64,000 bases of DNA. Source: an uncultured Clostridium sp. GTDB taxonomy: Bacteria > Bacillota_I > Bacilli_A > RF39 > UBA660. This document shows positions 1,177 through 37,986 of this stretch, one piece after another. Position 1 is the stretch's first letter; each line of letters opens with the position of its first letter. Both the position numbers and the translations under genes were made by a program. The notes beneath the pieces were generated by a model. It was not told where the DNA came from, searched no databases, and saw only the letters and a list, made by a program, of their open reading frames with translations. The DNA is taken from the NCBI GenBank assembly GCA_964589375.1, contig CAZPSA010000001.1, forward strand, positions 1,410 to 65,409, in the 5' to 3' direction.

Positions 1177-1221
1177 ACTCTTGTCCTCCTTTCTTTTGTG
1201 ATGACAGAGTATAAGTAGTTA

Positions 1222-1264
1222 CGCTACTAAAACTCCATCATCAGATGTATTTCTTTTAGTAGCG
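1222..1264. repeat. Perfect 11-bp inverted repeat CGCTACTAAAA / TTTTAGTAGCG with a 21-nt spacer
   Basis: Read directly at 1222-1232 and 1254-1264. It lies between a terminator and the SD of the recombinase-proximal small ORF. It could be an operator, a recombinase-associated site or an RNA hairpin. Confidence 0.6.
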
Positions 1265-1286
1265 CTCCTAGAGAACACGAACTAAT

Positions 1287-1318
1287 AAATATTAATAAAA
1301 GGGGATTTCATCTCCCCT
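1287..1318 (-). terminator. Rho-independent terminator after the 77-aa gene
   Basis: The minus strand reads AGGGGA-GATGAAA-TCCCCT followed by TTTTATTAAT. Confidence 0.55.
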
Positions 1319-1326
1319 AAATCAAG

Positions 1327-1560
1327 CTATTTAGTGTCATTCGACAAATTATTACAAGTTTCTTTTAACGCTTCATAGCCTGCATAAATTAAGTCAATTT
1401 TTCTAATGTTATGTTTTTCAAGAAACTCATTTATCTCATCATACTTTTCTTTTGGAAGTCTAGTATTAAATTGAGTAGTAGCCTTTAATCTTTCTTCCTT
1501 ATTTCTTTCTTCATAACTTCTTCTTGCATTTCTTAGTGGTGTATCTTCTTTTCTTGGCAT
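1327..1560 (-). CDS. Small ribbon-helix-helix-like protein (ICE accessory or regulator)
   Basis: The SD TAGGAGGAAT precedes the ATG. The segment QFNTRLPKEKYDEINEFLEKHNIRKIDLIYAGYEAL has a strand-helix-helix pattern typical of CopG/MobC-type proteins. Function is not established. Confidence 0.5.
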   Translation of the reverse strand: MPRKEDTPLRNARRSYEERNKEERLKATTQFNTRLPKEKYDEINEFLEKHNIRKIDLIYAGYEALKETCNNLSNDTK

Positions 1561-1572
1561 AACTAATTCCTC

Positions 1573-1689
1573 CTATTTTATTATTGCACTTACAAATAAT
1601 GTTGCTATATTTAATATAATATTACAAGCTAGTGCTACAACCATGATTCCAACTTTACCTATAAATCCTAATACTTTTAATACTTTCAT
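1573..1689 (-). CDS. 38-aa hydrophobic peptide, translationally coupled (ATGA overlap) to the upstream ORF
   Basis: Own translation gives MKVLKVLGFIGKVGIMVVALACNIILNIATLFVSAIIK. Its start overlaps the TGA of ORF 1686..1886, and its stop sits in the SD of the next gene. Confidence 0.4.
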   Translation of the reverse strand: MKVLKVLGFIGKVGIMVVALACNIILNIATLFVSAIIK

Positions 1690-1886
1690 TGTTTTTCTTC
1701 TCCTTCTTCTTTATTTACTAGGTTCTTTAATTCAGCTATAACTACAGAAATTTCTTTATCTAATATGTTTACGACTAATAAATATAAATCCATTTCTTGT
1801 GGCGAACAAAATTCATTCCCTAGTCTATATCTTATTTCATGTAATTTTTCTAATGTATCTACTTGATCTATTACTGCAACTTCCAT
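1686..1886 (-). CDS. Hypothetical 66-aa ICE protein
   Basis: ORF track entry, co-oriented and tightly packed in the operon. No motif recognised. Confidence 0.45.
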   Translation of the reverse strand: MEVAVIDQVDTLEKLHEIRYRLGNEFCSPQEMDLYLLVVNILDKEISVVIAELKNLVNKEEGEEKQ

Positions 1887-1900
1887 TTCTTAAGTTTCTC

Positions 1901-2314
1901 CTATTCTACATATACTAATTCATTTAATATGACTTCTTCAATTTCTTTTTGAATTGCATTTTCTATTTGAACATTCTTTAAGAAATCTTCAGTCTTTTGG
2001 TTTTCAGGTTTAGCTGATAGGTTATTATACATTACTTCATAAATCTCATCAGCTTGTTTGTCTATGTTATGCAAGTAAGTTGGTAAATTTCCACCTAGTG
2101 ATAAATACTTTCCAAAATTATGCTCTTCTAAATACTTTTTAGCAAGTGTTCCATACTTTCCATAGACATGTTTAACAGGTTTTACATTATTTTGATAAAT
2201 GATTATTTCCTCAACTGTTAGCCCTTCATCAGCTTCTACTTTTCTTAAAATTTCCGTTTTTAGCATATTTTCACCTATCATCCTTTCTACACTTATATTA
2301 TATCGTGATATCAC
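1901..2314 (-). CDS. TnpV-like protein (family first seen in Tn4451-type serine-recombinase elements)
   Basis: YGKYGTLAKKYLEEHNFGKYLSLGGNLPTYLHNIDKQADEIYEVM matches my memory of the TnpV pattern (GKYG..L..YL.EH...Y..L...G.L..HL..ID..A). The true start may be an internal Met. Confidence 0.55.
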   Translation of the reverse strand: MISRYNISVERMIGENMLKTEILRKVEADEGLTVEEIIIYQNNVKPVKHVYGKYGTLAKKYLEEHNFGKYLSLGGNLPTYLHNIDKQADEIYEVMYNNLSAKPENQKTEDFLKNVQIENAIQKEIEEVILNELVYVE

Positions 2315-2344
2315 GATAAAGTCAAGTATTATGTTAAATATTTT

Positions 2345-5300
2345 TTAACTTAATAAAATCGCAATTCCTTTAACTAAATAAGGTAAAGCAACCAAAATTA
2401 CAAAGATCGCAACGATACCAATTATGTAATTTACTAACATTTTTTTAGCTTTTACTTTGTCTTCATTCTTTTGTGCAACCGCATATGCTACACCCATTCC
2501 AATACTCCAAAGTCCAGCTGTTGCTGTAAAAACGTATATAATATAAGGACTATATTTATTAACTAAATCAATAATATAAGTTGCTACTTTATCATATTGA
2601 TCCCCAAGTGCTTCACTATAATTATCACCACAATCACTACATTTATATGTTCTTTCTACTACTCCATTTTTATTAGATTCATTTAAAAGTTGATAATTAT
2701 GTCCTGTAGCTGGAATGATAATTTCATATTCATCACCACATTTTGGACAATAATATCTTCTTTTTCCTTCATTAACACAGTCTGATTCTTTTAATATTTC
2801 AGTTTCATAAGCGTGCCCTACTGGTAATATTTCATTAGTTTGATATTCACTTGAACAAAACATACAACTATAAAATGTCCCTCCACTTTTAGTACAAGTT
2901 GGTTCACGATTAGTTTCTATATACTTATGTCCTATTGCTAAAGTGGTATTATTTTGATATGAGTCACCGCAATAACTACATTCATATTCAGTATATCCAT
3001 TTGTTGTACAAGTTGCTTCAACTACTGTTTTTACATAGTTATGACCAGATGCACTTACATAATTATCATAGTAAATATTACCACATAAAGAACATTCATA
3101 TTCAGTATATCCTTTATCTAAACATGTTGGAGTAACTGTTGTAGTCAAATAACTATGACTACCAAATCCAACACTTTCTGAATAAGTATAGCCACATAAA
3201 CTACATTTATATGTAATACTGCCTTCTTCTTCACAACTACCCACTTTATTAGTTATTTCATAATCATGACCTAAAACATCAACATAATTATCATCATATG
3301 AGTATCCACAATCTAAGCACTCATAATGAGTATATCCCTTATTCATACAATTTGCTTCGTATGTAGTTTCTTCATAATTATGAGGTAGTTTATCAATATA
3401 GTCTCCTTTCCATTCAGTTAAGCAAACATCACAGAAATATAATGTATAACCTTGTGATGAACAAGTAGGATTTACAACTTCTTTTTCAGTTTTATTATGG
3501 TCTCCAATTCCAGTCCAGTTTCCATTAATTACTACATCACAATATTTACATTTATTAATTGTATAACCTTCTTGTTGACATGTTGCTTCCACACTTCCTG
3601 CAACATAAAATTCATGATCTATTGCATCTACAACATTTCCTTCCCACTGTGTAAGACAGTAATCACAATGATATAAAGTATATCCATCTTCTTCACAAGT
3701 TGGAGCAACCACCTCAATTACAACAGGCACATGGTCTCCTATTCCAGTCCAGTTACCATTAATTACTACATCACAGTTTTTACATTTATTAATAGTATAA
3801 CCTTCAGCTTGGCAAGTTGCAGCAACACTTCCTGCAACATAAAACTCATGTTCTAAAGCATCTACATAATCACTTTTCCATTGATGTAAACAATATTCAC
3901 ATTGATATAAAGTGTATCCTTTTTCATCACAAGTTGGATTTACTACCTCAATTACTTCAGGAATGTGGTCACCAATTCCAGTCCAATTCCCATAAATTAC
4001 TCCATCACAAGTAAGACATTCATTAATCGAATAACCTTCTGCTAGACAAGTTGCTTCAACCCAACCAGTTATTACCCATTTGTGGTCGATAGTAACATTG
4101 TATGTTGTTGTCTTTCCATTTTGTGCAATAACAACAATTTCATAATCTCCTTCTTCAGTTAACTTACCACCGCTAAAATACTCCATTCCATTAACACCTA
4201 CTGTATAAGTGTTATCAAACCAAGTAAGCATATAGTGGTTTGTTTCTTCATCATATTGGATTAAAATTTCTGGTGCTTCTTGAGAAAATTCTACAAACTT
4301 TTCACCACTTCTATTTCCAAACTCATCTTCTGCATAAAAGTAATAAATACCCTCATCCATATCATAAGTTATATCAATATAATTATTACTCAATACACAA
4401 TAATCTAAATCATTTGGTCCTTTATAATAAAGTTCACAAACACTATCATCTTCAGCTGTTACTCTAAATTCAAATTGAGTAGTTGTTCCAAAAGTAGCAC
4501 CTTCTACAGTTAAAACTGGTGATTCATTATCAAGTGTTACTGAATAAGTTGATGAACGATTTCCTGCATAATCATAACAATAAAACGAATATTTACCACT
4601 TGCAAGATATTGAGTTGAAGTACTTGCTGCAACATAACTTGTAGCTCCTGGCATTAAAACATAAGCACTTCTTACTCCAGTTCCTGTTCCATTTACGGAA
4701 TAATAAATATAATCTCCACTTACAACAGATCCATCTGCAACAACTCCACTTTCAGTATAAAGTAACATTGTTGGTGCTTTAGTATCATAATTCATAGTTT
4801 TAATTAATGAATAGTTTCCTGCGTTATCTCTTGTTCTAAAATAATAAGTTCCATTAGTAGATACAAGAGTTAATACTTCAGTTGGATATTCTTCCCATAC
4901 ATTATCCATTGGAGTCTTCCATTCCATTATTTTTACTCCACTATCTGCATCTGTTGCACTATAAAAGAATTGAGCATTCGTATAAGCTGATGAAATAGTT
5001 ACTCCTTTTGAATTAGTAATTACTCCAGTAGGCGGTGTTTCATCATAATAAACATAATGGATTTCACTTTCGTTTCCACTATTGTCTACTGCATAAAATG
5101 AATATAATCCATTAACTCCATTTGTTATTTCACAAGGATTAGGACATGCAGTAAAACTAGTTGCATTTGGATTTTTAATATACAAGTTTTTAAGTCCACT
5201 TCCAGAGTCTGTGGCTGATACTTCAAAATCACTTATTTCATAATAAGTTTTAGATGTTGATGCACCAGTTATTACTGGAGCGTTCCCATCAACTTGAAAT

Positions 5301-5854
5301 GAATAAGTAACAGAAAACGTTGCTGATTGCTTTGTATAAACTGGATAACTTGTAAAATAATCTTCTCCATACCAAACTAAATTAATATAGTAAGATCCAT
5401 CTTCTAGATTTCCACTAAACAAAGTTGTAGGTTGAGATGCAGTTGTACTACTTGCTACAACTGTTCCATTTACATTTCTTACTGAATATGAATTAATCTT
5501 ATTTGTTCTATTAATATTATAATCAGTTTCTACTGCTATTGTAATATCATTAAAATCAAATAAATGTCCACTATTTGCAGTCTCTACAGTTGATGTATGA
5601 GATGAACCATAAATATATAATTCTAATGATCTTTGATTATGTCCACCAAAAGTAAGTGTTGTAGATGTTCCAGAAGTTACTTGTGGTGTACTCATTCCAT
5701 ACGAACTATAAGTTTCGGTATAATCCATATTTAAAATATATTTATTTGTAGATGCAGCATTTACCTCTACACAATTTGGTCTAATCACTACATTAGTAAT
5801 TAAAGCCAGTGTTAAAAATAATGATAAAAATAAACCTTTTAATACTTTTTTCAA
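2345..5854 (-). CDS. 1169-aa surface protein: signal peptide, Ig-like repeats, ~14 Cys3-His modules and a C-terminal pilin-like two-TM hairpin
   Basis: The N-terminus MKKVLKGLFLSLFLTLALI is a signal peptide. Repeated SATD(S/A)(G/D)SG(L/V)K motifs fit Ig-like domains (aa ~190-590). Residues 599-1080 are repeats of TC...GYT.Y.C..C..Y......GH. Residues 1095-1169 resemble the 99-aa protein at 9745..10044. Confidence 0.85.
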   Translation of the reverse strand: MKKVLKGLFLSLFLTLALITNVVIRPNCVEVNAASTNKYILNMDYTETYSSYGMSTPQVTSGTSTTLTFGGHNQRSLELYIYGSSHTSTVETANSGHLFDFNDITIAVETDYNINRTNKINSYSVRNVNGTVVASSTTASQPTTLFSGNLEDGSYYINLVWYGEDYFTSYPVYTKQSATFSVTYSFQVDGNAPVITGASTSKTYYEISDFEVSATDSGSGLKNLYIKNPNATSFTACPNPCEITNGVNGLYSFYAVDNSGNESEIHYVYYDETPPTGVITNSKGVTISSAYTNAQFFYSATDADSGVKIMEWKTPMDNVWEEYPTEVLTLVSTNGTYYFRTRDNAGNYSLIKTMNYDTKAPTMLLYTESGVVADGSVVSGDYIYYSVNGTGTGVRSAYVLMPGATSYVAASTSTQYLASGKYSFYCYDYAGNRSSTYSVTLDNESPVLTVEGATFGTTTQFEFRVTAEDDSVCELYYKGPNDLDYCVLSNNYIDITYDMDEGIYYFYAEDEFGNRSGEKFVEFSQEAPEILIQYDEETNHYMLTWFDNTYTVGVNGMEYFSGGKLTEEGDYEIVVIAQNGKTTTYNVTIDHKWVITGWVEATCLAEGYSINECLTCDGVIYGNWTGIGDHIPEVIEVVNPTCDEKGYTLYQCEYCLHQWKSDYVDALEHEFYVAGSVAATCQAEGYTINKCKNCDVVINGNWTGIGDHVPVVIEVVAPTCEEDGYTLYHCDYCLTQWEGNVVDAIDHEFYVAGSVEATCQQEGYTINKCKYCDVVINGNWTGIGDHNKTEKEVVNPTCSSQGYTLYFCDVCLTEWKGDYIDKLPHNYEETTYEANCMNKGYTHYECLDCGYSYDDNYVDVLGHDYEITNKVGSCEEEGSITYKCSLCGYTYSESVGFGSHSYLTTTVTPTCLDKGYTEYECSLCGNIYYDNYVSASGHNYVKTVVEATCTTNGYTEYECSYCGDSYQNNTTLAIGHKYIETNREPTCTKSGGTFYSCMFCSSEYQTNEILPVGHAYETEILKESDCVNEGKRRYYCPKCGDEYEIIIPATGHNYQLLNESNKNGVVERTYKCSDCGDNYSEALGDQYDKVATYIIDLVNKYSPYIIYVFTATAGLWSIGMGVAYAVAQKNEDKVKAKKMLVNYIIGIVAIFVILVALPYLVKGIAILLS
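3365..4060 (-). repeat. Three diverged tandem copies of a ~234-bp (78-aa, two Cys-module) unit inside the surface-protein gene
   Basis: Residues 599-830 read VEATCLAEGYSINEC..WTGIGDH..VVNPTCDEKGYTLYQCEYC..HEFYVAGS three times, at a visually high but uncomputed identity. Confidence 0.8.
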
Positions 5855-5856
5855 AA

Positions 5857-8487
5857 TTACATATCCTCCCTATTTTGTTCAAAAAGTTTTTTCACATAAT
5901 CACCTGTAGTTATCTTTATTGCAGCTCTTAATTCGGTTGAGCCAATAAAGAATACTTGTCCAGTTACAGCTGATATTATCATTCTTTGTTCTTCATCATT
6001 AAAACTATCTCCTGCCTTATAAATATCTAGTACATCTTTCATGTCTGGAGCTGATAGTTTAAAAATAAATGTATATTGACTATTTTTTAGAATTGTTGAA
6101 GTCTTACTTCTTAACTCTTCATTTCCATTCCAGTCTGCTATATTTTGAGTTGCTGGAATAAATGAACCATTATATTTTCGAATTCTTTTATTCATTTGAT
6201 AAAAGAAATCAAGTGCTATTGGAAATTTAGCATCAATGAAAAGGTGTGCTTCATCACAAACTATCATTGTTCTTAAATTGTTTCCATTTTTATTTAACTC
6301 TCTTGCATTAATTACTTCTTGTTCAATAAATCTAAAAATTAAAAGCATTTGTGCATTTGCAACTACATTATTCTTATTTGCAAACAATGATTGAAAGTTA
6401 AAATCAATTAAACTTGAATCAACTTCTAAAGTTGATGGTGCATTCCAAATATCAGAATATCTACCACTTACAAACTTTTGTAAATAAAGTTCTGCAGTTC
6501 TTAAATCTCTTAAAGTTAAAGAATCTAAATTAGTAGTATCTTTTGATTTTAACACATTTAAAAGGTCAGTAAATATTGGATAATCTTCTGCATGTAAATG
6601 AGTACAATCAGTAGTTTCAAGTATTCCTTTTTTCTCATATGCCTCTACTATTAAATTATTAATTAACTCAATTACATCATTACTTGCACCAACTAATACT
6701 ATCTTAAAGAAAGACTCTAACATCTTAAGATGTGTATTAAAGGTTACAACTGGATCTGCTCTTGTTCCATCTTCTGTTAAGATTTTATAAATATGAAATG
6801 GATTAATTCTTCCTTCTTTTGCATTACCAACATCTATTACATTTCCACTTAAATTTTTAGTTAGAGTGATGTATTCTGCTTCTGGGTCACAAATAATTAC
6901 TCTTGTGTTATTTGCCCACTCATTTGTAATTAAACTTTTTAAGAAAAATGATTTACCACTTCCACTTTTTCCAATTATCATTGCATTTGAATTTTGATAA
7001 AGGTTCCCTCTTTTCCATAAGTTAAAAATAAATGGATAATTATTGTTTTTATTTTCACCTAACATAATTCCACCTTCATCCATAACAAATGTTCTAACAA
7101 ATGGAAATACTGCAGCAAGTGATGAACTATTAATTCCTCTTTCTTGTTGAGTTAAAGTTGAAATAGGTGAGATGTTTGCTGACTTAAATCCTTCTACTTG
7201 TAAACCATATAAAGTTGAAGGTCTAAAGTTACCAAGTAACATTGCTCGTCTAACACTTTTTTTATAGTTAGAATCATCTAAATAATTATAAGCAGTCAGT
7301 GTTAAAGTCACATCAAATAGAGTTTCATTTTCAGCTTGTAAACTATCAAGTAAACTATTCATAGACTCTCTATGAATTTCAGCAGAATTTGCTTCACTTG
7401 CTTTTTCACTCATGATTTCTTTTGTTTCCATTTCTGAAATACATTTATCAATTCTTTTAATTGCTTTGTATTTTTCTACTGGTTTAAAATGTAATACTGC
7501 TTTTGTATTTGGGATATTAAATAATTCACTACCCCAAGCATTTTTAACACGTAGCGGAAAATCACTTACCGCAAGACAACTTGCATCTACTCCATCAATC
7601 ACATAATGATTTGAAAAGAATTCAACTTCATTTGGTTTAACCCAGTTTACTAATTCTTCATCACTAATATCTTTTACTTCTCTTTCATCAAAGTTTCTTG
7701 AATATGAGTATTTTAAAAATACAGCAACATCTCTTCTTTCTAAAATCTTTGTACTTATTCCACATTTATTAATTTCACTTGAAACATTAATTGTTGCGTT
7801 TTCTAAGTCAAGTTCATTCTTCCCATAAATGACGATATAAAAGTCAGATAGGTATTTCTTTCTTATATTATTAAGTCTATCAATTCTATCAATTCTTTCT
7901 CTTAAGATTTCACTTTTAATCTCTTTTAAAAACATGTCATATTCATTTTCTTTAACTTCAGTTAGTCTTTCAAATAACTCTTCAGAAAAATGATCTAAAT
8001 TAACTGGTCTATCAATCTTTACAATATCAGCACATTGTGTGCCATCAAGTTGTTTTAATGCACTAGCAAAGTAATTAATATCTGCATTTTGTTCTACTAA
8101 ATCTTCAATTCCAAAATTCTTTTGTCCTATTTTTATAACTCTACCAAAATATGAATTATTGTATTCAATAACACCATTTTCTTTAATATCTTTTAAAGCA
8201 ATTAAAGTATCAATATTTTCTTTTTCATTTGTAGATGTTTTAGAATATTTTTTCTTTGAGAATATAAACTTAACATTTTCAAATAAGAAAGAATAAAATA
8301 TTCCATCACTTGTAGGCATAAACATAATAACTGAAATAAGTAACATAATTATTGCAAATACCCAAGCATCCATAGTTATAGCAATAAATATAATTGCAAA
8401 TACTATTAATGCTACAATTATATCGGGCATTGAATAACACTTCCATACTGTATTTTTTACTTTTATCTTTTTAGGAATTATTCTCAT
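5857..8487 (-). CDS. VirB4/TraE-type conjugative ATPase with an N-terminal VirB3-like TM segment
   Basis: Walker A is IIGKSGSGKSFFLK and Walker B is MIVCDEAHLF. The N-terminal hydrophobic hairpin is IIVALIVFAIIFIAI...AIIMLLISVIMF. Size is 876 aa. Confidence 0.9.
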   Translation of the reverse strand: MRIIPKKIKVKNTVWKCYSMPDIIVALIVFAIIFIAITMDAWVFAIIMLLISVIMFMPTSDGIFYSFLFENVKFIFSKKKYSKTSTNEKENIDTLIALKDIKENGVIEYNNSYFGRVIKIGQKNFGIEDLVEQNADINYFASALKQLDGTQCADIVKIDRPVNLDHFSEELFERLTEVKENEYDMFLKEIKSEILRERIDRIDRLNNIRKKYLSDFYIVIYGKNELDLENATINVSSEINKCGISTKILERRDVAVFLKYSYSRNFDEREVKDISDEELVNWVKPNEVEFFSNHYVIDGVDASCLAVSDFPLRVKNAWGSELFNIPNTKAVLHFKPVEKYKAIKRIDKCISEMETKEIMSEKASEANSAEIHRESMNSLLDSLQAENETLFDVTLTLTAYNYLDDSNYKKSVRRAMLLGNFRPSTLYGLQVEGFKSANISPISTLTQQERGINSSSLAAVFPFVRTFVMDEGGIMLGENKNNNYPFIFNLWKRGNLYQNSNAMIIGKSGSGKSFFLKSLITNEWANNTRVIICDPEAEYITLTKNLSGNVIDVGNAKEGRINPFHIYKILTEDGTRADPVVTFNTHLKMLESFFKIVLVGASNDVIELINNLIVEAYEKKGILETTDCTHLHAEDYPIFTDLLNVLKSKDTTNLDSLTLRDLRTAELYLQKFVSGRYSDIWNAPSTLEVDSSLIDFNFQSLFANKNNVVANAQMLLIFRFIEQEVINARELNKNGNNLRTMIVCDEAHLFIDAKFPIALDFFYQMNKRIRKYNGSFIPATQNIADWNGNEELRSKTSTILKNSQYTFIFKLSAPDMKDVLDIYKAGDSFNDEEQRMIISAVTGQVFFIGSTELRAAIKITTGDYVKKLFEQNREDM

Positions 8488-9674
8488 TCTCCCCCACCTC
8501 CGGTATCTTCTGATTCCTCATCTTTCTTTTCTTCTACATATTTATCATTTTCATCTTGTTTTTCTTTCTTTTTGTTTTCATTTCTTTTATTAAGTCTTCT
8601 ACTCATTCCACTAATTCCTCTAATGATTTTACTTGCTGTTCCAAAAGTTAAAGCACTCGCAAATCTAGATCCATAGAAAGCACTTCTTAAGAAACTACCT
8701 CCTGCATGCATATCATCAGCTTGTCCAAATAATCTTGCAAATAATGTTTGACCGGCAGGAATTACTAAAGCTCCACCAATTATCATAAAGATTAAAAACA
8801 TTGAGTTTGCAAAGTTTGATACTCCTGGTATCTTCATCTTTGATATAAATGGTAAAATCAAAATAAAGATATTAACTGAAAAGACAGTACCATACGCTAA
8901 AACAATTTTAGTAATAAATGTTTCTCTCCATATTTTAAATCTTGCTCCATCATCAATAGCAATTGTTGACATTGAAACTGGTAAGACAATATAAAGTAAT
9001 ACAATTTCATATACTCTTTTAGCAAGATTTATAATAGCAACTACCATTGCAATCATTAGTCCAATTGATGCTATCATTGAAGGAAGATATAAGAATGTAT
9101 CTGGATTAACCATTCCATTATTTTTCCAACTTGTAGGCCAAATACCAAATGCTGCAGTATTATAATCACCAAAGATTTTTCTAACTGTTAAACTTGAAAT
9201 ATTAATTTCATTAATTGAATAACCATTTACCCAGTCACCAACACAAGCATTAAATATTGAGTTTGATAGTTTTGTTGTATTACCAATTTCAAAGATTTCT
9301 GAAACTAATACTAATATTGCATTTGATATTAAAATACCAAGAATTACAACAACAACCATTGCAAGTGTTCCAAGTAGTGCTAGAAAGAATTTTCCAATAA
9401 TAGTTGTAATATTTCTATTATTAGCTATCATATTCTTTACTAGAGCAACTATTGTAAATATGCAAGTTAGTCCTACTGCTAAAATAAATACACACCAAAA
9501 TATTGTACCAACTGTTGAGTCACCAACTATAAACTCAATAATATTAACTCTTTTCCCTTGATAAGTAACATCAGTTACTCCTGCAATAGCAGAAAAGATT
9601 TCCATAATACCATCAATAACTTTTAAGAACCAAAGAAATAAAAGTAAAATCAACTCTTGAAAAAATATAAGCAT
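8484..9674 (-). CDS. VirB6/TrbL-like polytopic T4SS membrane protein
   Basis: There are about 7 hydrophobic segments and a charged C-terminal tail (KRNENKKKEKQDENDKYVEEKKDEESED). It sits between the pilin-like gene and VirB4, with a 4-nt overlap with VirB4. Confidence 0.6.
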   Translation of the reverse strand: MLIFFQELILLLFLWFLKVIDGIMEIFSAIAGVTDVTYQGKRVNIIEFIVGDSTVGTIFWCVFILAVGLTCIFTIVALVKNMIANNRNITTIIGKFFLALLGTLAMVVVVILGILISNAILVLVSEIFEIGNTTKLSNSIFNACVGDWVNGYSINEINISSLTVRKIFGDYNTAAFGIWPTSWKNNGMVNPDTFLYLPSMIASIGLMIAMVVAIINLAKRVYEIVLLYIVLPVSMSTIAIDDGARFKIWRETFITKIVLAYGTVFSVNIFILILPFISKMKIPGVSNFANSMFLIFMIIGGALVIPAGQTLFARLFGQADDMHAGGSFLRSAFYGSRFASALTFGTASKIIRGISGMSRRLNKRNENKKKEKQDENDKYVEEKKDEESEDTGGGGE

Positions 9675-9705
9675 TGTTTTTCTCCTTTTCTTATTATATA
9701 TAGTA

Positions 9706-9734
9706 AAGGCGATAAGAGATTATCTTACCGCCTT
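9706..9734 (-). terminator. Hairpin (12-bp stem, one mismatch) just after the pilin-like gene; a possible partial terminator or attenuator
   Basis: The arms are AAGGCGATAAGA (9706-9717) and TCTTACCGCCTT (9723-9734), with loop GATTA. The downstream tract on the minus strand is only moderately T-rich. Confidence 0.4.
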
Positions 9735-9744
9735 GTATCAGAAG

Positions 9745-10044
9745 CTAGTTAGCTCCAATTCCTACCCAAGATGATAAGCCTTCAATTAATAATGGTGCAC
9801 CCATTGCGACAACGAAAATAATCACAATTCCAATAATCAAATTCTTAACCATATCACGAGCATTGATTTTTTCTTCATTTTTGTGTGCGATTGCAATTTT
9901 AATACCAACATAAGCACCCCATACAATAACAACTGCTGCTAGTGCCATAACAATATAAATCCAAAAACTATCCATTAATTCACTTAATTTTGTAACAATT
10001 GATTGCAAAGAATCATTTAAAGTAGCTTCCGCTAAAAACATCAT
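9745..10044 (-). CDS. TrbC/VirB2-like small two-TM T4SS protein (pilin-like)
   Basis: This 99-aa protein has two TM helices separated by the charged loop AHKNEEKINARDMVKN. It sits in the T4SS block. Confidence 0.5.
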   Translation of the reverse strand: MMFLAEATLNDSLQSIVTKLSELMDSFWIYIVMALAAVVIVWGAYVGIKIAIAHKNEEKINARDMVKNLIIGIVIIFVVAMGAPLLIEGLSSWVGIGAN

Positions 10045-10066
10045 AATTTTTTACCTCTTTCCTTTA

Positions 10067-11788
10067 TTATTTTTTCTTGTTTTTAATTTGCATAAATATA
10101 ATTGTTCCACCAACTAGTAAAACAACTAAAATTAATATTAATACTAGTGGTGTAGATGAACTTCCTTTACTATCATCTACATCATCATTTCCATCAGTAG
10201 GAGTATTATCTTCTACTGGTGTTTTATTTTCATCTTCACCATTATTTGGAGTATTAGAATTATCTTGATTATTATCACTGTTTCCAGTATCTCCATTAGG
10301 TGTATTCCCATTACTTGTTCCATTATCCCCACTTGGATTATTTACAGAACCCTGATTATTATTGTTGTTATTATTTTGATTATCATTTGTATTGTTTTGA
10401 TTACCATTTTGATTTTGTTGATTATTGTTTACATCATCATTTTGATTGTTATTACTATCATCAACATTTCCTCCATTATTAACATCATCTTGATTATTAT
10501 TATCATCCACTGGTGGTTTTACTGGAGTAGGCGGTTGTTGAGGAGTTGGTGGCGTTACTATAACATCATCCTCTTCTTCAACTTTATTTTCTATTTCAAA
10601 TTTAGTTAAAATAACTCCATAATCATTCACCACAATTATTTGATATTTCCCTTCTAAATTAGAATAGTCAATATACCCATAATCATTTACATTCATTGTA
10701 ATATTTGCTTGTCCAGTTTTTGAAAATATAATTTGTATTTTTGAATTATCTACATGATTACACTCACACCTATTGCTAACAAAGAATAACATTGCTTCTT
10801 TATTAAGTTCTGAATATAAAGTGTATGTATGTTCATGAACTGGTTCTTCCTTTTCATTATAGCCATTATCTTTACTTGTTGAAAAGTTGGATAAGTAACT
10901 ATAATTACACCTATTACAAACATGTTTAATACATCCAATAGTATCATTATCAGAATTTACTAATATTTCTGTAAACTCATGACCTAATGGATCTACATAA
11001 TCACTAACAAATCTATCACTACAAGTAGTACAAAAGTTTTCTTTGTATCCATAAGTTGCACAAGTTGGATCAATTATACGACTTCCATAATTATGACCAC
11101 TTGAGTTTACATAGTCAGCGATAAAGGAATATTGACAATTCTCACAATAATAACTTGTATATCCACCTTCAAAGCAAGTAGGAGCAATTACTTCAGTTAT
11201 ATAATCATGTCCTATCTTATCAATATAGTTATTGTTATACGAATAACTACAAGTAAGGCAACTATGTTTGGTATATCCATCTTCATCACAAGTTGGTGGA
11301 ATATCTACGCTTTCAAATGTATGACCTAGTTCATCTACATGGTCACTTGTATATTCGTGTCCACAAGTACTACAGAAATGTGTTGTATAGCCTTTATGAG
11401 TACAAGTTGGTTTAACTACAACTGACATATACTTATGACCTAGTGGTTCGCTTGTTTCATCTTTATAACTAAAGTTACACCTTACACATTCAAAAAGTGT
11501 ATGTTCTCCAGTTGTACATGTTGCATTTTTTAAAGTTTTTGTAAACTCATGACCTAATGCTTCAGTGTATTTATCTTTATAAGAATAATTACAAACTTTA
11601 CAAGTGAAAGTTGTATATCCTTGAGTAAGACATGTTGCATCTGTAACTAATTCTAAATAGTCATGACTACACTGTGTAAATGGATTTTCTTGAGCATTTA
11701 CTTTTAAACTATTGTTTCCAAAGATTAATGCAAATCCTATCACTAAAGTCATAAGTCCTAAAACAATATAGTTTCTAAATTTTCTCAA
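10067..11788 (-). CDS. 573-aa surface protein: signal peptide, 7 Cys3-His modules, N/D/Q/P/T-rich linker and C-terminal TM anchor
   Basis: The signal peptide is MRKFRNYIVLGLMTLVIGFALIF. Residues 40-300 carry modules TC..GYT...C..C.YSY.......GH. Residues 405-545 are low complexity, followed by the TM LVLILILVVLLVGGTIIF and KNKKK. Confidence 0.85.
   Translation of the reverse strand: MRKFRNYIVLGLMTLVIGFALIFGNNSLKVNAQENPFTQCSHDYLELVTDATCLTQGYTTFTCKVCNYSYKDKYTEALGHEFTKTLKNATCTTGEHTLFECVRCNFSYKDETSEPLGHKYMSVVVKPTCTHKGYTTHFCSTCGHEYTSDHVDELGHTFESVDIPPTCDEDGYTKHSCLTCSYSYNNNYIDKIGHDYITEVIAPTCFEGGYTSYYCENCQYSFIADYVNSSGHNYGSRIIDPTCATYGYKENFCTTCSDRFVSDYVDPLGHEFTEILVNSDNDTIGCIKHVCNRCNYSYLSNFSTSKDNGYNEKEEPVHEHTYTLYSELNKEAMLFFVSNRCECNHVDNSKIQIIFSKTGQANITMNVNDYGYIDYSNLEGKYQIIVVNDYGVILTKFEIENKVEEEDDVIVTPPTPQQPPTPVKPPVDDNNNQDDVNNGGNVDDSNNNQNDDVNNNQQNQNGNQNNTNDNQNNNNNNNQGSVNNPSGDNGTSNGNTPNGDTGNSDNNQDNSNTPNNGEDENKTPVEDNTPTDGNDDVDDSKGSSSTPLVLILILVVLLVGGTIIFMQIKNKKK
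10154..10576 (-). repeat. Low-complexity Asn/Asp/Gln/Pro/Thr-rich linker coding region
   Basis: Read from the translation (PPTPQQPPTPVKPP...NNNQDDVNNGGN...NNNNNNNQG...). It also generates the spurious plus-strand ORFs at 10077-10609. Confidence 0.9.
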
Positions 11789-11808
11789 ATAGTATCCTCC
11801 TTCTTTTA

Positions 11809-14025
11809 TTATTTTACTGCAAGGTCTTGAAGACGTAATAATTCTGGTAATGCCTCACCAGATATGTAGTCTGCTAGGTCTTGCATTTTTTGGGCTATGG
11901 TTTGGTCATAATTTTCCATTAACATATAAAGAATTGTTGCTTTATCTTCTAGTCTTGCTTCTTTAATTGTTTTTCTATCCCTACCATTTAACATTCTAGT
12001 AAGAATATCAATTTTCTTATGAATTTCATTTATGACTTTATCCCATTCTTTATCAAGTTCTAATAACTTGTCTTGATTACTCTCTTCTAGTATCACCTCT
12101 TGTTCATCTAGTTTATTGATTTCATCTAATATTCTATCTTCATCACTACTACCATTTTGAGTTACAATATCAAATACATAATCTTGCTTTTCAAAAAGTC
12201 TTGCTTCTCTTTTAGATACATCAGCTTTACCTTCTGGAAAGTAAACATCTTTTAACTCATATGATGGAGTAAACTTTGTCCAAATAGGTTCATATCCTCT
12301 AACCGATACAATAGCATCTCCTTTTTCATTACCATTAAGACGTTCTAACATTCCAATAGTAATTAATGGTTGATTACTTGCTCCAGTATTACTTGATGCA
12401 GGATTTTCAGCATTTGTATTAACTGAAAAGTTTTTAACCTTTTTCTGTCCACATAGTTCTGAAAACTCTTTTCTAGTATCTGGATCATCACTACCAATAA
12501 AGATTTTAACGTTACAGTTAGTTTTAATAATATCTCCAATGTCTTTTCCATATTTAGCAGTTAACTGACTAAATGATTGTAAAACAAATAAGAATCTTAT
12601 ACCTCTTGAACGAGCAACAGTTACCATACCTTCCATATTTTCAAATTTAGGTAAGTTACCAAATTCATCTAAAACAAAATATGTATTTCGTTTTAATATT
12701 GCAGTTTCACACTGATTTCTTCTTAAGTTAAGATTTGCTTTTTCAACAAGTTCTTTATACATTTGAGTAATAAATAATGTAACAAATCTATGTCTAGTAA
12801 ATCTTTCGTCCGGAACTATAATGAATACCGCATTTGGTTCTTCATCAAGATTTATAATATCTAAATCATTTTCTGATGTTAAAGATAAAATTCCATCATC
12901 AGATAATTGTTGCATATAACTATTTACTTCAGATAAATAACTTGTTAAAGTTTTATCACTTGTAATAAGTACAGTGTTTACAATTCCCCTAACTTTAGAA
13001 AACTCATCACGACCTTCAAGTAAATATTCTCTTAAAGCTGTAGTATCTTCACTACAATATTTAGTGATGTTATGATAGATATTGAAAAGTAGTAATTGTT
13101 TTTCTTCTACTTTCCCTTTGATGCAATCTTCACAAAGTGCTAAAACAAAACCAAAGATTAAGTTTCTTGCACCTTCTTCCCAAGTTGGTTGGTCTTTATT
13201 TTGTACAGGACATAATGTATAAACTAAATCTTGAGCGTTCTCATAGATTTCATCTTTCAATTCTTGAACTCTAGTTCTTGCATCTTTATAAGATAAAAAT
13301 GTTTCTCCTGCACCATAATACTTTCCATCTTTGTTTTGAAGATTGTTTTCTAAATCTTTAACTAGTTTAATACGCCTAATTAATACATTCATTGGATTCC
13401 ATCTAGCTGAAGAGTAAGGTTCTCTTAAATCTAACATTGAGATTTTATATCCTTCTTTTATTAACTGATTAGCATGTTTTTCATATAGTTCTTTCTTTGG
13501 GTCAGTTATAACAATAGAAGGTTTAGTTTTACATCTACCTAACACTTCAATATTTTGGTCAACAAATCCCGTTGTTTTACCACTTCCGGTAGTACCAACA
13601 ATTAATGCATGTAATTGACTTGTAGCAATTACTTCAACATTACTACCTTTCTTTTCTGCACCTATAACAATACCATCTTTTGAATATTTAAAATCTTTAA
13701 ATGTACTAACTTCAAACTCACGAAGTTTTCTTAACTTTTTAGTAGTTAACCATTCTGTATCTTCTAGATCATTTTCATTTAACGCAATGTTTTGAGCATC
13801 TATTCGATACATCATTAAATATCCAATAATAAGTAACCCACATACAACTCCAACTACTAAATAATAATTACGATTGTTTAATATAATTGAAATGCTATCT
13901 TTAGTAGTCAAATTAAATATTAGTAATATAAGTACTGCCATAAAGGTGAAGATAAATAACCAAAGAAGAATATCTAAACTTCGGGATTTTTTCTTTTTGT
14001 GCTTAAGGGCTTCATCTCTATTCAC
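11809..14025 (-). CDS. VirD4/TraG-type type IV coupling protein
   Basis: It has N-terminal TM helices, Walker A IVGTTGSGKTTGF and Walker B YFVLDEFGNLP. Size is 738 aa. Confidence 0.9.
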   Translation of the reverse strand: MNRDEALKHKKKKSRSLDILLWLFIFTFMAVLILLIFNLTTKDSISIILNNRNYYLVVGVVCGLLIIGYLMMYRIDAQNIALNENDLEDTEWLTTKKLRKLREFEVSTFKDFKYSKDGIVIGAEKKGSNVEVIATSQLHALIVGTTGSGKTTGFVDQNIEVLGRCKTKPSIVITDPKKELYEKHANQLIKEGYKISMLDLREPYSSARWNPMNVLIRRIKLVKDLENNLQNKDGKYYGAGETFLSYKDARTRVQELKDEIYENAQDLVYTLCPVQNKDQPTWEEGARNLIFGFVLALCEDCIKGKVEEKQLLLFNIYHNITKYCSEDTTALREYLLEGRDEFSKVRGIVNTVLITSDKTLTSYLSEVNSYMQQLSDDGILSLTSENDLDIINLDEEPNAVFIIVPDERFTRHRFVTLFITQMYKELVEKANLNLRRNQCETAILKRNTYFVLDEFGNLPKFENMEGMVTVARSRGIRFLFVLQSFSQLTAKYGKDIGDIIKTNCNVKIFIGSDDPDTRKEFSELCGQKKVKNFSVNTNAENPASSNTGASNQPLITIGMLERLNGNEKGDAIVSVRGYEPIWTKFTPSYELKDVYFPEGKADVSKREARLFEKQDYVFDIVTQNGSSDEDRILDEINKLDEQEVILEESNQDKLLELDKEWDKVINEIHKKIDILTRMLNGRDRKTIKEARLEDKATILYMLMENYDQTIAQKMQDLADYISGEALPELLRLQDLAVK

Positions 14026-14028
14026 ACT

Positions 14029-15081
14029 TTATTTTTCCTCCTTATCCTTTTTAGATTGTTTAATCCTTTCTTGTTTCATTTCCTCTTCGATTTCCTCTAA
14101 TCTTCTTGAAAAATCTCTTTCAAGTAATCTACTTTGGAAAGCAAATGACTGTAAGAATTTACCAAACATACTATTTACTTTCTTTTTGGAAATGATAATT
14201 CTACGTTTTAATTTTGTATCATTTGGCTTGTACTTTTTATTAAGGCTTCTTTCAAAATATTCAGGCTTTATTTTTCTTGCAAGATTAAGCACTAAATTAC
14301 CCTGTCTTCTGATATATTCTTCTTCTATGGTATCAATCATCTTTTTAGAATTATCATCTATTTTATAACCATACTTTTCTTTATTTCTTTCCATTTCTTC
14401 AAGTTTTACATTATCTTCAGAAAACAAATGAGTGGTATTAATTATTTCTTCTACTTTTTTCTTCATAGAACGTAAAGCCTTATAAAATTCATTATCAGCC
14501 TTTCGAGCTTCCCTATCATAACCTAGTAAAAGTGCAACTATGTTATCTACCCTTTCCCTATATGGCTCCATTTCTTCACTTCCATATGATAATCTTCCTT
14601 CTTGTGGTAGTTCTTTTACAAGTTCTAATAGTTCTTTTTTTACATCATCACTAGTAGTGATAGCAACATTAATGGCAGTCAATCCCTTAAGCTCTCGCAG
14701 TGCCTCCATTTTACTTTTATAGAAATGATCTGTTTCATCATCTAAATAAAGTCCTGCATTGATAAACATTTTATCTAATGCTCTTTTATCAATTTTCCCC
14801 TTACGCCTATATGTAATAGAACCATCATTTGCATAATATTTAGGTTCTTTTTCCCAAAACTGAAAATGTATATGTAAGTGATGTGGTCTATCTTTATGTA
14901 ATGCACACATCAAATCTATATTTTCTTCATGTAATGAAGCATCTTTAAAGAATTTTGAAAAAACATTTTTTATAAATCTTATACACTTTTCTGGATTATC
15001 AATTTTATAGCTTTCTTCTTCACTTAATGAAATGAAACCATGCCAAATAAAACCTTTGTTATTCTTAAGTCTTTCTTTCAT
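14029..15081 (-). CDS. Conjugative relaxase (HUH type, MobL/MOB_P-like); the ATG-initiated part only, see the finding on its N-terminal extension
   Basis: The His-cluster motif CALHKDRPHHLHIHFQFWE matches HxDx(3-4)HxH. It lies next to the coupling-protein gene, 3 nt apart. The frame stays open 255 nt upstream without ATG, GTG or TTG. Confidence 0.65.
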   Translation of the reverse strand: MKERLKNNKGFIWHGFISLSEEESYKIDNPEKCIRFIKNVFSKFFKDASLHEENIDLMCALHKDRPHHLHIHFQFWEKEPKYYANDGSITYRRKGKIDKRALDKMFINAGLYLDDETDHFYKSKMEALRELKGLTAINVAITTSDDVKKELLELVKELPQEGRLSYGSEEMEPYRERVDNIVALLLGYDREARKADNEFYKALRSMKKKVEEIINTTHLFSEDNVKLEEMERNKEKYGYKIDDNSKKMIDTIEEEYIRRQGNLVLNLARKIKPEYFERSLNKKYKPNDTKLKRRIIISKKKVNSMFGKFLQSFAFQSRLLERDFSRRLEEIEEEMKQERIKQSKKDKEEK

Positions 15082-15343
15082 TAGTTCAAGTTCAGCATCT
15101 GTTATTACTCCATTCCCATTAAATACTCTAGTTGATTTTTGTAAATATTCTAAAGCTGTGAAAGTATCATCAACTTTATCTTTTCTAGTAATATAATTTA
15201 AAAGGTTTTTACCACCAGTTAAATCATAAAATGCTCTATCTTCTTTGTGCTTTTGAATTTCACTTTCAGTTGCATTTGATTTTAGCTTATAAGGAGTGTA
15301 TCCAATATTAAATACAATATTTGAATTTCCTATTATTCTTCAC

Positions 15344-15838
15344 CTACTTTCTTAATTCATTTAAACCATTGATTTCATAATCAATTAAATAATCTGGTGT
15401 ATCTCTGTATGCACCTTTTTTAATTTTTTTAATGTCCACTTTACCACCTTCAATTTCAATTTCTTTTATTCCATATAGAGAACATAAAATTGATTTATTA
15501 ATAGTCACATTTAAAACTACTTCTTTTATTAAATTTGTAATTTGTGAGAAATAATTTTCATCAACACCATTAATTTTTCTAACCATTTTAACTGAAGAAT
15601 TACTTTCTTCTTTTTCTTCAACTATATTAAATAAGGAATTATATAGAATTGGAAATCCACATTTTAGTGCATCGTTAATTACTTTGTTAAACGATTTTTT
15701 ATACTCATCTAACTCCATAATTTTTTCAATATATTCCCATATTTCATCATCATTTATCCTTATATACTTTCTTGATTTTCTTTCATCTTTTTTGTTTTCT
15801 TCCATAAGATTGTCAAGAACAAGAAGTGAGTGTGTCAC
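15344..15838 (-). CDS. Hypothetical 164-aa protein upstream of the relaxase (possible relaxosome accessory)
   Basis: ORF track entry in operon position. No motif recognised. Confidence 0.45.
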   Translation of the reverse strand: MTHSLLVLDNLMEENKKDERKSRKYIRINDDEIWEYIEKIMELDEYKKSFNKVINDALKCGFPILYNSLFNIVEEKEESNSSVKMVRKINGVDENYFSQITNLIKEVVLNVTINKSILCSLYGIKEIEIEGGKVDIKKIKKGAYRDTPDYLIDYEINGLNELRK

Positions 15839-16315: not shown

Positions 16316-17974
16316 TTAAGTTTTTGAGTTTAGACCAAAATGTCTTTTTGAACCAATATTAAACTTAGGTGATTTTTCACTTGGTGCTTTTAATTCTTTG
16401 ATAAAGTTTGTTGCTCTCTCAGCCAAACGTTCATAAAGAGACATCGGTTTATTTTCATTAAATTGTCCAGATGATTTAAAGATTCTTAAAAGTTGTTCAG
16501 TATCTCCTCCAGTAAACATAGCTAATCTATTCATTAAAGATAGAGCATCTTTTTCAGAATTTCCTAATATACTTTTACCTTCATAAAGTTCTTTAAACTT
16601 TTCTCCATCTTTAGTAGTCATTGCTTTTTCTATAACATCTTTATCACTCATTCTAGTAAGTGAGTTTATTCCTCTTTCACTCATATCAATTTTTCTAGCA
16701 ACAACTTCTTCATTCTTATTACTTGCAACCTCACTTGGTTTTACAAACACTAACGATTTAGCTTCTTCAATGTTAAGTTCATTTTGAATATCTAAACTAA
16801 TTTGATTTAGTTCATCAATTGATACTTCTTTAAATGTTGAATTTTTATAGTAATCAAGTTCACTCATCTTATCAATTTCTTTTCTTAAAGCATCTACACT
16901 TGCAAAACCATGATTAACAAGTAAAGCTGTAGCACCTTTATCAGTTGTAGTGTAGGCTTTATAGACAATCTCACCATAAGCATTTTCACTTTCCACAATA
17001 GCATAATGCTCTATCTTTTTTTCTTCAGTTTTTTCTTTTGAGATAACATACTTTGAAATCTTATCAGCATCTGCTATTGCATTAAATAAAATGTTTGGAT
17101 CATCTTTAATTCCTTCATACCAGTGTTTAATGTAAGCACTGTTGTTTTGAATATGGTTTTCATCAATTGTTATACCTAATTCTTGTTCAATGAACAAAGA
17201 GGCAATTTCTGCTCTTAGTTCTTCAGTTGCATAACTTGGTGTTCCAAATCCACCACCCAAATCTCTATTTAACCTTTTTTCATGTCCAGTGGAATGACCA
17301 ACTTCATGAAGAGCAGTTGAATAAAATTCGTTGTAACTTAAAAATTTGTTCCTTTCTGGTAAATGAATCTCATCTTTTGATGGAATATAATAAGCATTAC
17401 TTCCACCATAAATTATTGGTGATTCATTTTTACTCCAGTAATCTAAGATATTTTCAGCTCTTACATTTTTTTCAGTTTCATTTAAAGTTGTCTCTTCTTT
17501 TTTAGGAAGTCCCTCAACTAAGTCACCATTAAATACTCTATAGTATCTTCTATGAGCATATAAGTTATCTCTTACATATTGTTCTTTTTCTTCAAGAGTC
17601 ATTCCTTCTAAAACTTTTCTATCAAATGTTTTTTTAGTATTCTTATCACGAAACTCAAAGAACTCAACAGTTACACCTTTACCTTTTCCTAAAGAATTAC
17701 CTTCTTCATCTTTTTTAAAACTATAACCATTTGATTCAATTTGGTGATACGTTAACCACCTATTATCTTGATAACCATTAGCCATACTAACTAAAGTTAG
17801 ATAGAAGTTATTAACTCCACGATATGGTTTTTTAGTACTAAATGATTCTGGAACTTCACTTTTCCATCCCGGTTTCCAAAGTCCAGTTCCTTCACTTAAA
17901 TTCTTTAATACCTCATCAATAATCTTTTGACGTTGAGGAGTTAGTTTATCGTACATTGTTTTTTCATTACTCAA
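16316..17974 (-). CDS. ardC: ArdC-type antirestriction protein (ssDNA-binding N-domain plus zincin metalloprotease) with an extra C-terminal helical module
   Basis: KPYRGVNNFYL marks the ArdC-N domain. ALHEVGHSTGHEKRLNRD is the HExxH zincin motif. The C-terminal aa 437-525 resemble the C-terminus of the neighbouring 3068-aa protein. The track start is a TTG. Confidence 0.8.
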   Translation of the reverse strand: MSNEKTMYDKLTPQRQKIIDEVLKNLSEGTGLWKPGWKSEVPESFSTKKPYRGVNNFYLTLVSMANGYQDNRWLTYHQIESNGYSFKKDEEGNSLGKGKGVTVEFFEFRDKNTKKTFDRKVLEGMTLEEKEQYVRDNLYAHRRYYRVFNGDLVEGLPKKEETTLNETEKNVRAENILDYWSKNESPIIYGGSNAYYIPSKDEIHLPERNKFLSYNEFYSTALHEVGHSTGHEKRLNRDLGGGFGTPSYATEELRAEIASLFIEQELGITIDENHIQNNSAYIKHWYEGIKDDPNILFNAIADADKISKYVISKEKTEEKKIEHYAIVESENAYGEIVYKAYTTTDKGATALLVNHGFASVDALRKEIDKMSELDYYKNSTFKEVSIDELNQISLDIQNELNIEEAKSLVFVKPSEVASNKNEEVVARKIDMSERGINSLTRMSDKDVIEKAMTTKDGEKFKELYEGKSILGNSEKDALSLMNRLAMFTGGDTEQLLRIFKSSGQFNENKPMSLYERLAERATNFIKELKAPSEKSPKFNIGSKRHFGLNSKT

Positions 17975-30779: not shown

Positions 30780-30789
30780 ATAACCTCCA

Positions 30790-34051: not shown

Positions 34052-34095
34052 TGTTTCTCCTTTCTAGGTATACTCTAAAGCGGGAATAGTGTTAA

Positions 34096-34236: not shown

Positions 34237-34249
34237 AAAAGGCACTCTC

Positions 34250-34396: not shown

Positions 34397-34446
34397 TTAT
34401 ATAATCTCCTAACTTTAGTTTTTCACTTTTCCCGCTTTTTAAGTAT

Positions 34447-36075: not shown

Positions 36076-36084
36076 AACCTATCC

Positions 36085-37984: not shown

Positions 37985-37986
37985 AT

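Follow-up and report, generated by a model that had tools for sequence, protein, structure and literature searches.

A pilin-like module shared with a small type IV secretion system protein ends a giant adhesin-like surface protein in a conjugative element of gut Firmicutes

The DNA analyzed here is a 64,000-nt stretch (the window; contig CAZPSA010000001.1 of assembly GCA_964589375.1, from an uncultured Clostridium sp.), and all positions are numbered along this whole stretch. It carries a conjugative element that spans ~1300-28000, with all of its genes on the minus strand, and that encodes a type IV secretion system (T4SS). Directly after the gene for the VirB4 ATPase of this system lies a gene for a 1169-amino acid (aa) surface protein, whose C-terminus resembles a 99-aa pilin-like protein encoded a few genes upstream in the same locus. 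The genes concerned, in element order, are the following.

11809-14025, minus strand: VirD4-type coupling protein, 738 aa (PF02534, E = 1.4e-46).
10067-11788, minus strand: sibling surface protein, 573 aa, with a signal peptide, 6 Cys repeats, a low-complexity stalk, a single C-terminal transmembrane (TM) helix and a KKK tail.
9745-10044, minus strand: stand-alone pilin-like protein, 99 aa, the putative major subunit (PF18895).
8484-9674, minus strand: VirB6-like polytopic protein, 396 aa, of the MMCAP2_0566 / Mbov_0396 family (NCBIfam NF045848, 186 bits, above the cut-off of 90).
5857-8487, minus strand: VirB4 ATPase, 876 aa, with N-terminal TM segments, of the mycoplasma integrative and conjugative element (ICE) type (NCBIfam NF045975, 578 bits, cut-off 590; Pfam TraG P-loop/AAA_10).
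2345-5854, minus strand: fusion protein gene, 1169 aa, with a TTG start at 5854-5852 and the stop at 2347-2345, directly after virB4.

Both open reading frames (ORFs) on which the original prediction was built, the 1169-aa frame at 2345-5854 and the 99-aa frame at 9745-10044, are present as it described them. The TTG start of the fusion gene lies five bases past the virB4 stop (5859-5857), and a GGGAGGA sequence is found at 5870-5864, within the end of virB4. Because the start follows the virB4 stop so closely and this sequence sits inside the end of virB4, we assign the fusion gene to the core channel operon, and it is probably translationally coupled to virB4. The 1169-aa protein was divided into the following parts.

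5756-5854, minus strand: Sec-type signal peptide, residues 1-33, MKKVLKGLFLSLFLTLALITNVVIRPNCVEVNA, with the predicted cut before AS; read from the sequence, with a helix at 7-21 of low confidence in the AlphaFold2 (AF2) model.
4085-5755, minus strand: N-terminal ectodomain, a tandem beta-sandwich (immunoglobulin (Ig)-like / OmpL47-type) array, residues ~34-590; all-beta in AF2, predicted local distance difference test (pLDDT) 80-92.
2627-4084, minus strand: Cys-rich stalk, residues ~591-1076, with 12 repeats of ~38-39 aa (C-x9-C-x2-C ... H), counted and spaced by regular expression.
2348-2626, minus strand: C-terminal pilin-like module, residues ~1077-1169, with an acidic helix (1086-1100), a first TM helix (TM1, 1102-1129), a basic loop and a second TM helix (TM2, 1133-1168).
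2429-2473, minus strand: loop QKNEDKVKAKKMLVN, residues 1128-1142, net charge +3, predicted to be cytoplasmic; its N-E-x-K core is invariant in both paralogue clades described below.

A signal peptide with a basic n-region, a hydrophobic h-region and an AxA-like site was found in 48 of 50 complete homologous fused ORFs. When the 1169-aa protein was modelled by AF2 with 26 homologues, the all-beta stretch covered residues 36-590 (pLDDT 80-92), and the stalk (residues 600-1084) appeared as a train of beta-hairpin repeats with a pLDDT of 55-75. The ectodomain contains an OmpL47-type domain (NCBIfam NF047446, 50.4 bits, above the cut-off of 40), and its best Foldseek matches were the grappling hook GhpA, the giant adhesin SiiE and S-layer arrays. 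The Cys repeats are common to the 1169-aa protein (12 copies) and the 573-aa protein (6 copies, at 10800-11650, minus strand), with 33% identity, and carry a conserved His or Gly-His. No Pfam family matched the Cys repeat of either surface protein; the matches to PF02920 (the Tn916 integrase DNA-binding domain, in precomputed annotation of homologues) and a weak match to zf-CHY look spurious. The repeat could be an extracellular zinc-knuckle or a disulfide-stapled beta-hairpin of a stalk. No LPXTG-like motif was found in the 1169-aa or the 573-aa protein, and the 1169-aa protein contained neither the class III signal peptide motif G-[FMLIV]-[TS]-L-x-E nor a match to the VirB5 family (Pfam at E <= 0.1; NCBIfam).

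The C-terminal module of the 1169-aa protein was compared with the 99-aa protein by BLASTP with composition-based statistics. Residues 1083-1165 of the former aligned without gaps to residues 9-91 of the latter, with 29 of 83 positions identical (35%) and E = 4e-18. In a 50-residue core, which includes the KNE(E/D)K loop and the IIGIV.IFV helix, the identity rose to 44% (22/50), so that the alignment of the two proteins claimed from the sequence alone is borne out. The original prediction had placed the similarity in a two-TM hairpin at 2348-2572 (residues 1095-1169). The hairpin is there, but the homologous unit is wider: it comprises residues ~1077-1169 (~93 residues; 2348-2626, minus strand) and three helices, since an acidic, amphipathic helix precedes the hairpin in both proteins (LGDQYDKVATYIIDLVNKY in the 1169-aa protein and LNDSLQSIVTKLSELMDSF in the 99-aa protein).

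Two-TM hairpins are compositionally biased, and the fused module falls below the Pfam threshold for its family; hence, one might argue that the two hydrophobic hairpins are alike by chance, or that the fusion is an artefact of assembly or gene calling. A proper statistical alignment of the pair does not support this. The Smith-Waterman score of the module against the 99-aa protein was 160, compared with 30.8 ± 5.6 for whole-sequence shuffles (z = 22.9) and 40.1 ± 8.7 for shuffles confined to the helix, loop and helix segments, which keep the hydrophobic pattern (z = 13.7; maximum 82 in 2000). The other membrane segments in the window scored only 26-38. An artefact is contradicted by the recurrence of the uninterrupted frame, which is found in 49 genome assemblies that are independent of each other and in ~70 separate clusters at 50% identity (see below). 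These tests, together with the composition-corrected E value, refute the explanation by chance or artefact, to which we attach a negligible probability. We conclude that the similarity between the module and the 99-aa protein is true homology and not generic hydrophobicity.

The 99-aa protein passes the gathering threshold of Pfam PF18895 (T4SS_pilin; 29.9 bits, E = 6e-7, threshold 26.6), and its best NCBIfam match is the Mbov_0395 family pilin-like conjugal transfer protein (26.6 bits, cut-off 40). Its gene lies between those for VirD4 and for the VirB6-like and VirB4 proteins, an arrangement found in 34 syntenic loci. Family match and synteny confirm the earlier view that the small protein is a T4SS component. 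The label 'VirB2-like' holds in a narrower sense: it rests on curated family names, genomic context and topology, and no link in sequence or fold to canonical VirB2/TraA was obtained. The fused module also gave a weak NF045849 match. The AF2 model of the 99-aa protein is a helical hairpin (2-55/59-94, pLDDT 81); the charges are -3 on the N-side and +1 in the loop, with acidic flanks, and there is no cleavable leader. A Foldseek search of this model against the PDB gave a best E of 2.3 and no pilin among the 17 matches listed; since such a search discriminates poorly between simple hairpins, it speaks neither for nor against a VirB2 fold.

Close homologues of the 99-aa protein numbered 1981 at E <= 0.001, and the best 120 listed were mostly 80-99% identical. 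A tblastn search of 72,556 plasmids gave no match; the family resides in elements on the chromosomes of gut bacteria that are poorly cultured. None of the database cluster names for these proteins is meaningful; JGI calls the close homologues P0116 and P0119 'succinate dehydrogenase/fumarate reductase cytochrome b subunit', almost certainly a wrong name for a small hydrophobic protein. Five loci (L018, L027, L051, L052 and L065) have a tandem duplication of the free pilin gene, and P0181 unites two pilin modules in one chain of 212 aa. A class of ~280-aa proteins (e.g., P0259) combines a signal peptide and a ~170-aa ectodomain with a module of the free rather than the fused type, and P0271 looks like a deletion chimera of pilin and VirB6-like protein. 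The pilin module evidently tolerates N-terminal additions of many sizes. The 99-aa protein weakly matches positions ~50-115 of three VirB6-like NCBIfam models (Mbov_0396, MMCAP2_0566 and pLS20_p028; E = 2e-5 to 1e-3), which echoes the remark that the N-termini of VirB6 and CedA resemble their pilins (PMC9905601). Alignment of the module profile with the VirB6-like protein of the window (8484-9674) by hhalign gave no real match.

The original prediction called for a search for other adhesin-pilin fusions in T4SS loci, and these were plentiful. A scan of one genome per species (GTDB) yielded 80 related loci. Their genomes belong to gut Bacilli and Clostridia, with Christensenellales, Borkfalkia and Coproplasma among them, and nearly all are metagenome-assembled. 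A search with the module profile detected the fused-type module in all 80. In 49 loci it ends a complete frame of 422-1319 aa (median 833) directly after virB4; the frame is cut by a contig end in 27 and is short in the remaining 4 (two with in-frame stops, two decayed). One or two free pilin genes of ~100 aa were present in all 34 loci that reach far enough upstream, and wherever a locus is long enough to show it, the genes follow one and the same order, VirD4 - surface protein - pilin - VirB6-like - VirB4 - fusion - TnpV. When 1.84 billion cluster representatives were searched exhaustively with the profile, 389 clusters matched at E <= 0.001. Of the best 150, ~70 are 300-1373 aa long and have the module as their very last part, ~12 belong to the 280-aa class with a small ectodomain, and the remainder are free pilins or fragments. 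The closest database homologue, P0126, is 94% identical and belongs to a 90%-identity cluster of 155 members. We conclude that: i) this T4SS family keeps the fusion among its conserved core genes, and ii) the locus family occurs very commonly in gut metagenomes of humans and animals, as judged from the 1981 pilin homologues and the 155-member cluster of P0126.

The modules of these loci split into two clean clades, fused-type and free-type, with a mean identity of 71% and 70% within the clades and 34% between them; they are two old paralogous lineages. Without exception in either clade, TM1 retains W, G and A, the loop N-E-x-K, and TM2 F, P, L and G; an M is likewise invariant. Mean pairwise identities computed on 23 non-identical complete loci were 83% for the free pilin, 80% for VirB4, 73% for the fused module, 69% for the VirB6-like protein, 41% for the single-TM anchor of the sibling 573-aa surface protein and 39% for the fusion ectodomain. 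Across the loci, ectodomain identity is only 28-40%; it is the fastest-evolving part of the fusion and the most variable product of the operon. A mosaic pattern was also observed in contigs of unrelated samples, in which similarity of at least 90% runs through virB4, breaks at 5827-5859 and is resumed over the module (2345-2659). Contigs of RNA-labelled public runs, several of uncertain RNA status, document the occurrence of relatives and this mosaic, but not levels of expression.

The single-TM anchor of the 573-aa protein provides an internal control for a plain anchor. Because the fused module retains 73% identity and this anchor 41%, the module behaves in evolution as a machine part does, and not as a generic anchor. 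Specific intramembrane contacts would explain such conservation equally well, and herein lies the main rival explanation: the hairpin would stay in the membrane and bind laterally to the VirB6-like/VirB3-4 complex or to membrane-resident pilin, so that the adhesin stands beside the channel as a docked anchor, with no filament or stalk of pilin. Gram-positive T4SSs are not known to make pili, and ectodomain and Cys-repeat stalk together have enough length of their own to stand out from the surface; the weak NCBIfam likeness between the pilin hairpin and the N-terminal hairpin of the VirB6-like proteins would fit helix-helix packing. Lateral docking leaves unexplained why the operon keeps a separate free pilin, abundant, 83% identical and sometimes tandemly duplicated, and why the acidic extracellular N-helix is kept in both paralogues. 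We regard it as possible, though somewhat doubtful.

The topology of the module bears on its incorporation into a pilin-based structure. Because the ectodomain is Sec-exported, TM1 must run out-to-in, which places the basic KNEDK loop (QKNEDKVKAKKMLVN, +3) in the cytoplasm and turns the second helix back outward. The resulting N-out/loop-in/C-out arrangement of the fusion is a prediction, imposed by the exported ectodomain and consistent with the +3 charge of the loop; by homology and charge bias the free 99-aa protein would adopt the same one. This is the established membrane topology of the VirB2/TraA pilins. That the ectodomain might be a giant cleavable 'leader' of a propilin was considered and rejected: TM1 runs out-to-in, there is no signal-peptidase-type site at the junction (…CGDNYSEALGDQYDKV…), and the junction is conserved.

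We judge it about as likely as not that the 1169-aa protein acts as a minor pilin of modular build, an adhesin docked to the T4SS and functionally analogous to VirB5. According to this proposal, the module would let the VirB6-like/VirB4 machinery handle the 1169-aa protein like the free pilin-like subunit, and one or a few copies of the fusion would be built into a pilin-based structure shared with the 99-aa protein (a pilus, a short stalk or a channel collar). For so bulky an ectodomain there would be room only at the distal end or at low density; displayed at the distal end, this variable part would attach to the surface of the recipient and determine the specificity of mating. A broader version of the minor-pilin proposal, in which gut Firmicute elements, and perhaps mycoplasma ICEs, build a VirB2-like polymer with a pilin-adhesin fusion at its distal end that unites the roles of VirB2 and VirB5 and whose hypervariable ectodomain sets the recipient range, is put forward only tentatively.

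Exclusion proteins, too, are typically surface-exposed, element-specific and highly variable, as the ectodomain is. Held at the T4SS by the pilin module, it might serve for self-recognition, sensing cells that already carry the element and blocking redundant transfer. We consider such a role improbable: the positional counterpart of the 1169-aa protein in mycoplasma ICEs, CDS19 (CDS, coding sequence), is needed in the donor for transfer, which one would not expect of an exclusion factor; the size and the fibre-like Ig array fit adhesins; and the gene lies inside the core channel operon, apparently translationally coupled to virB4.

Several observations weigh against the minor-pilin proposal. 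No pilus or pilin polymer has been shown for this T4SS family or any Firmicute T4SS, and VirB2 and VirB5 are stated to be absent from Gram-positive systems outside Patescibacteria (PMC12857230, PMC4027160). The fused module scored 17 bits against PF18895 in the window protein and 21-26.2 bits in its relatives, all below 26.6, and within the full-length AF2 model its helices have a low pLDDT of 50-65. The 99-aa protein had no PF04956 match in Pfam at E <= 0.1; a sequence profile of the module searched against all PDB chains found no pilin, only chance matches to G-protein-coupled receptors and ninjurin; and hhalign gave the pilin profile a probability of 0.2% against TraA of the F plasmid. An in-frame stop lies between the ectodomain and the module in two independent loci: in L021 it is a TAA at 8356-8358, 71 codons upstream of the module, and in L074, from the cultured isolate Pumilibacter intestinalis CLA-AA-M10, a TAG at 10019-10021 inside LGDQYE(stop)V. 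These stops could reflect decay, a sequencing error or a natural split of the two parts; either the fusion is not strictly indispensable in every genome, or these copies are decaying. The 1169-aa protein resembles giant adhesins and surface fibres, and its adhesin activity is suggested by the modelled fold and the variability. The earlier description as adhesin-like is supported by the Sec-exported beta-sandwich array, which matches giant adhesins; binding to the recipient is a proposed role. Taken as a whole, the coupling of an adhesin to the T4SS through a pilin-like module is partly supported: we infer the steps that lead from a homologous, conserved and correctly oriented module to co-assembly and recipient binding.

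The remaining genes recognized in the element flank the channel operon.

18114-27320, minus strand: polyvalent SNF2/methyltransferase protein, 3068 aa, the first gene in element order.
16316-17974, minus strand: ArdC-metallopeptidase protein, 552 aa (ArdC-N plus a zincin metallopeptidase).
14029-15081, minus strand: MobP3-like putative relaxase, 350 aa (NCBIfam NF041499, E = 2e-16, below the cut-off; syntenic in related loci).
1901-2314, minus strand: TnpV, the last gene in element order.

The 3068-aa protein contains methyltransferase-like and SNF2/ResIII helicase regions and, at its C-terminus, an NrS-1 polymerase HBD; a segment like this HBD is also found at the end of the 552-aa protein. 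Both are typical anti-restriction or establishment cargo, delivered along with the DNA. At 2297-2325 on the minus strand, just past the stop of the fusion gene and within the GTG-start ORF listed for TnpV, is the region's best match to a sigma-70-like promoter (TTGACT-17-TATAAT, 11/12); its position suggests a later start codon for TnpV and separate transcription. No gene for a VirB1-like peptidoglycan hydrolase or a VirB8-like protein was recognized at 1200-15500 with Pfam and NCBIfam, which fits kinship with the ICEs of wall-less mycoplasmas and is odd for walled Clostridia carriers. Past ~28.5 kb the G+C content is ~20% and the genes are ordinary chromosomal ones, e.g., a radical-SAM/peptidase/ABC cluster and metK. 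Just outside the element, an AT-rich cluster (19-24% G+C; 29037-40201, minus strand) codes for two ABC transporters, a radical-SAM enzyme, an S8 subtilase, an HPr-kinase-like protein and a nucleotidyltransferase, and looks like a locus for the biosynthesis and export of a ribosomally synthesized and post-translationally modified peptide of the sactipeptide or ranthipeptide type.

The contact between donor and recipient in Gram-positive and wall-less conjugation is poorly understood, and this locus family offers a concrete candidate, in which a pilin-like subunit and a pilin-anchored variable adhesin flank the VirB6-like and VirB4 genes. If the module co-assembles with the free subunit, this would explain how recipient recognition is coupled to channel assembly, the host range of a major class of gut mobile elements would probably be determined by the ectodomain, and the essential CDS19 of mycoplasma ICEs, long unexplained, would gain a testable role. 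A polymer with the fusion at its distal end, if real, would contradict the statement that Gram-positive T4SSs outside Patescibacteria lack pilins and tip proteins. That a large surface protein of rapid evolution is anchored by a conserved second copy of the pilin-like protein suggests that recipient recognition may be wired into a type of machine that textbooks hold to have no pilins.

Among known systems, the module can be compared with the VirB2/TraA-type pilins (PF18895, the VirB2-like arrays of Patescibacteria, and archaeal CedA1/TedC). All have two hydrophobic helices with a short charged loop between them and an amphipathic helix in front, a predicted N-out/loop-in/C-out topology, and genes beside those for VirB4 and a VirB6-like protein. 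The differences are that no sequence or fold match is detectable, that the host is a Firmicute, and that one paralogue here bears an N-terminal ectodomain of 420-1300 aa. The fusion of a lattice-fitting pilin module to a bulky displayed domain is known from the modular type IV pilins PilB and PilC of Streptococcus sanguinis and from tip pseudopilins such as GspK; these belong to an unrelated filament system and their module is N-terminal with a class III signal peptide, whereas here it is C-terminal and the machinery is that of a T4SS. In virB operons, virB5 directly follows virB4, the same place that the fusion gene occupies. VirB5 likewise has a proposed distal adhesive role and may initiate assembly on VirB6 (model in PMC12857230); the likeness is one of position and proposed function only, since VirB5 is soluble, helical, ~220 aa long, not membrane-anchored and not a pilin paralogue.

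Monoderm T4SSs have been stated to be without VirB2 and VirB5 homologues, with Patescibacteria as the sole exception (PMC12857230, PMC4027160, PMC9905601, PMC12102498), and PF18895 has been used as a proxy for VirB2 (PMC12102498). In the literature we found no described adhesin-VirB2 fusion, Firmicute VirB2-like pilin or pilin-anchored T4SS adhesin, and no earlier description of a VirB2-like pilin module with an N-terminal adhesin in a monoderm-type conjugation system. PrgB of pCF10 and the thioester-domain adhesin of pLS20 are also large surface proteins of conjugation operons with an Ig-like stalk and a presumed role in mating-pair formation (PMC8092201); they are attached to the wall through LPXTG and sortase, whereas the 1169-aa protein is anchored by a paralogue of a T4SS subunit.

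A counterpart of the operon is the channel module of the mycoplasma ICEs (MICEs), which consists of CDS14 (surface protein, ~550 aa), CDS15 (TM, 95-121 aa), CDS16 (TM, 357-400 aa), CDS17 (VirB4, ~930 aa) and CDS19 (TM-containing, 1424-1517 aa) (PMC6813540). The hosts of the present loci are gut Bacilli and Clostridia, and the 573-aa protein has a Sec signal peptide and a TM anchor and no lipobox, unlike CDS14, which is a lipoprotein. Against the NCBIfam models of the MICE families, the window proteins scored 186 bits (cut-off 90) for the VirB6-like protein, 578 (590) for VirB4 in the Mbov_0397 family and 26.6 (40) for the pilin; judged by these scores, the system appears to be related to the MICE module without strictly belonging to it. 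The order and sizes of CDS14-15-16-17-19 match the 573-, 99-, 396-, 876- and 1169-aa proteins of the window, and CDS19 is the counterpart of the 1169-aa protein by position. Insertions in cds15, cds16, cds17 and cds19 each abolish the transfer of ICEA (PMC6030558).

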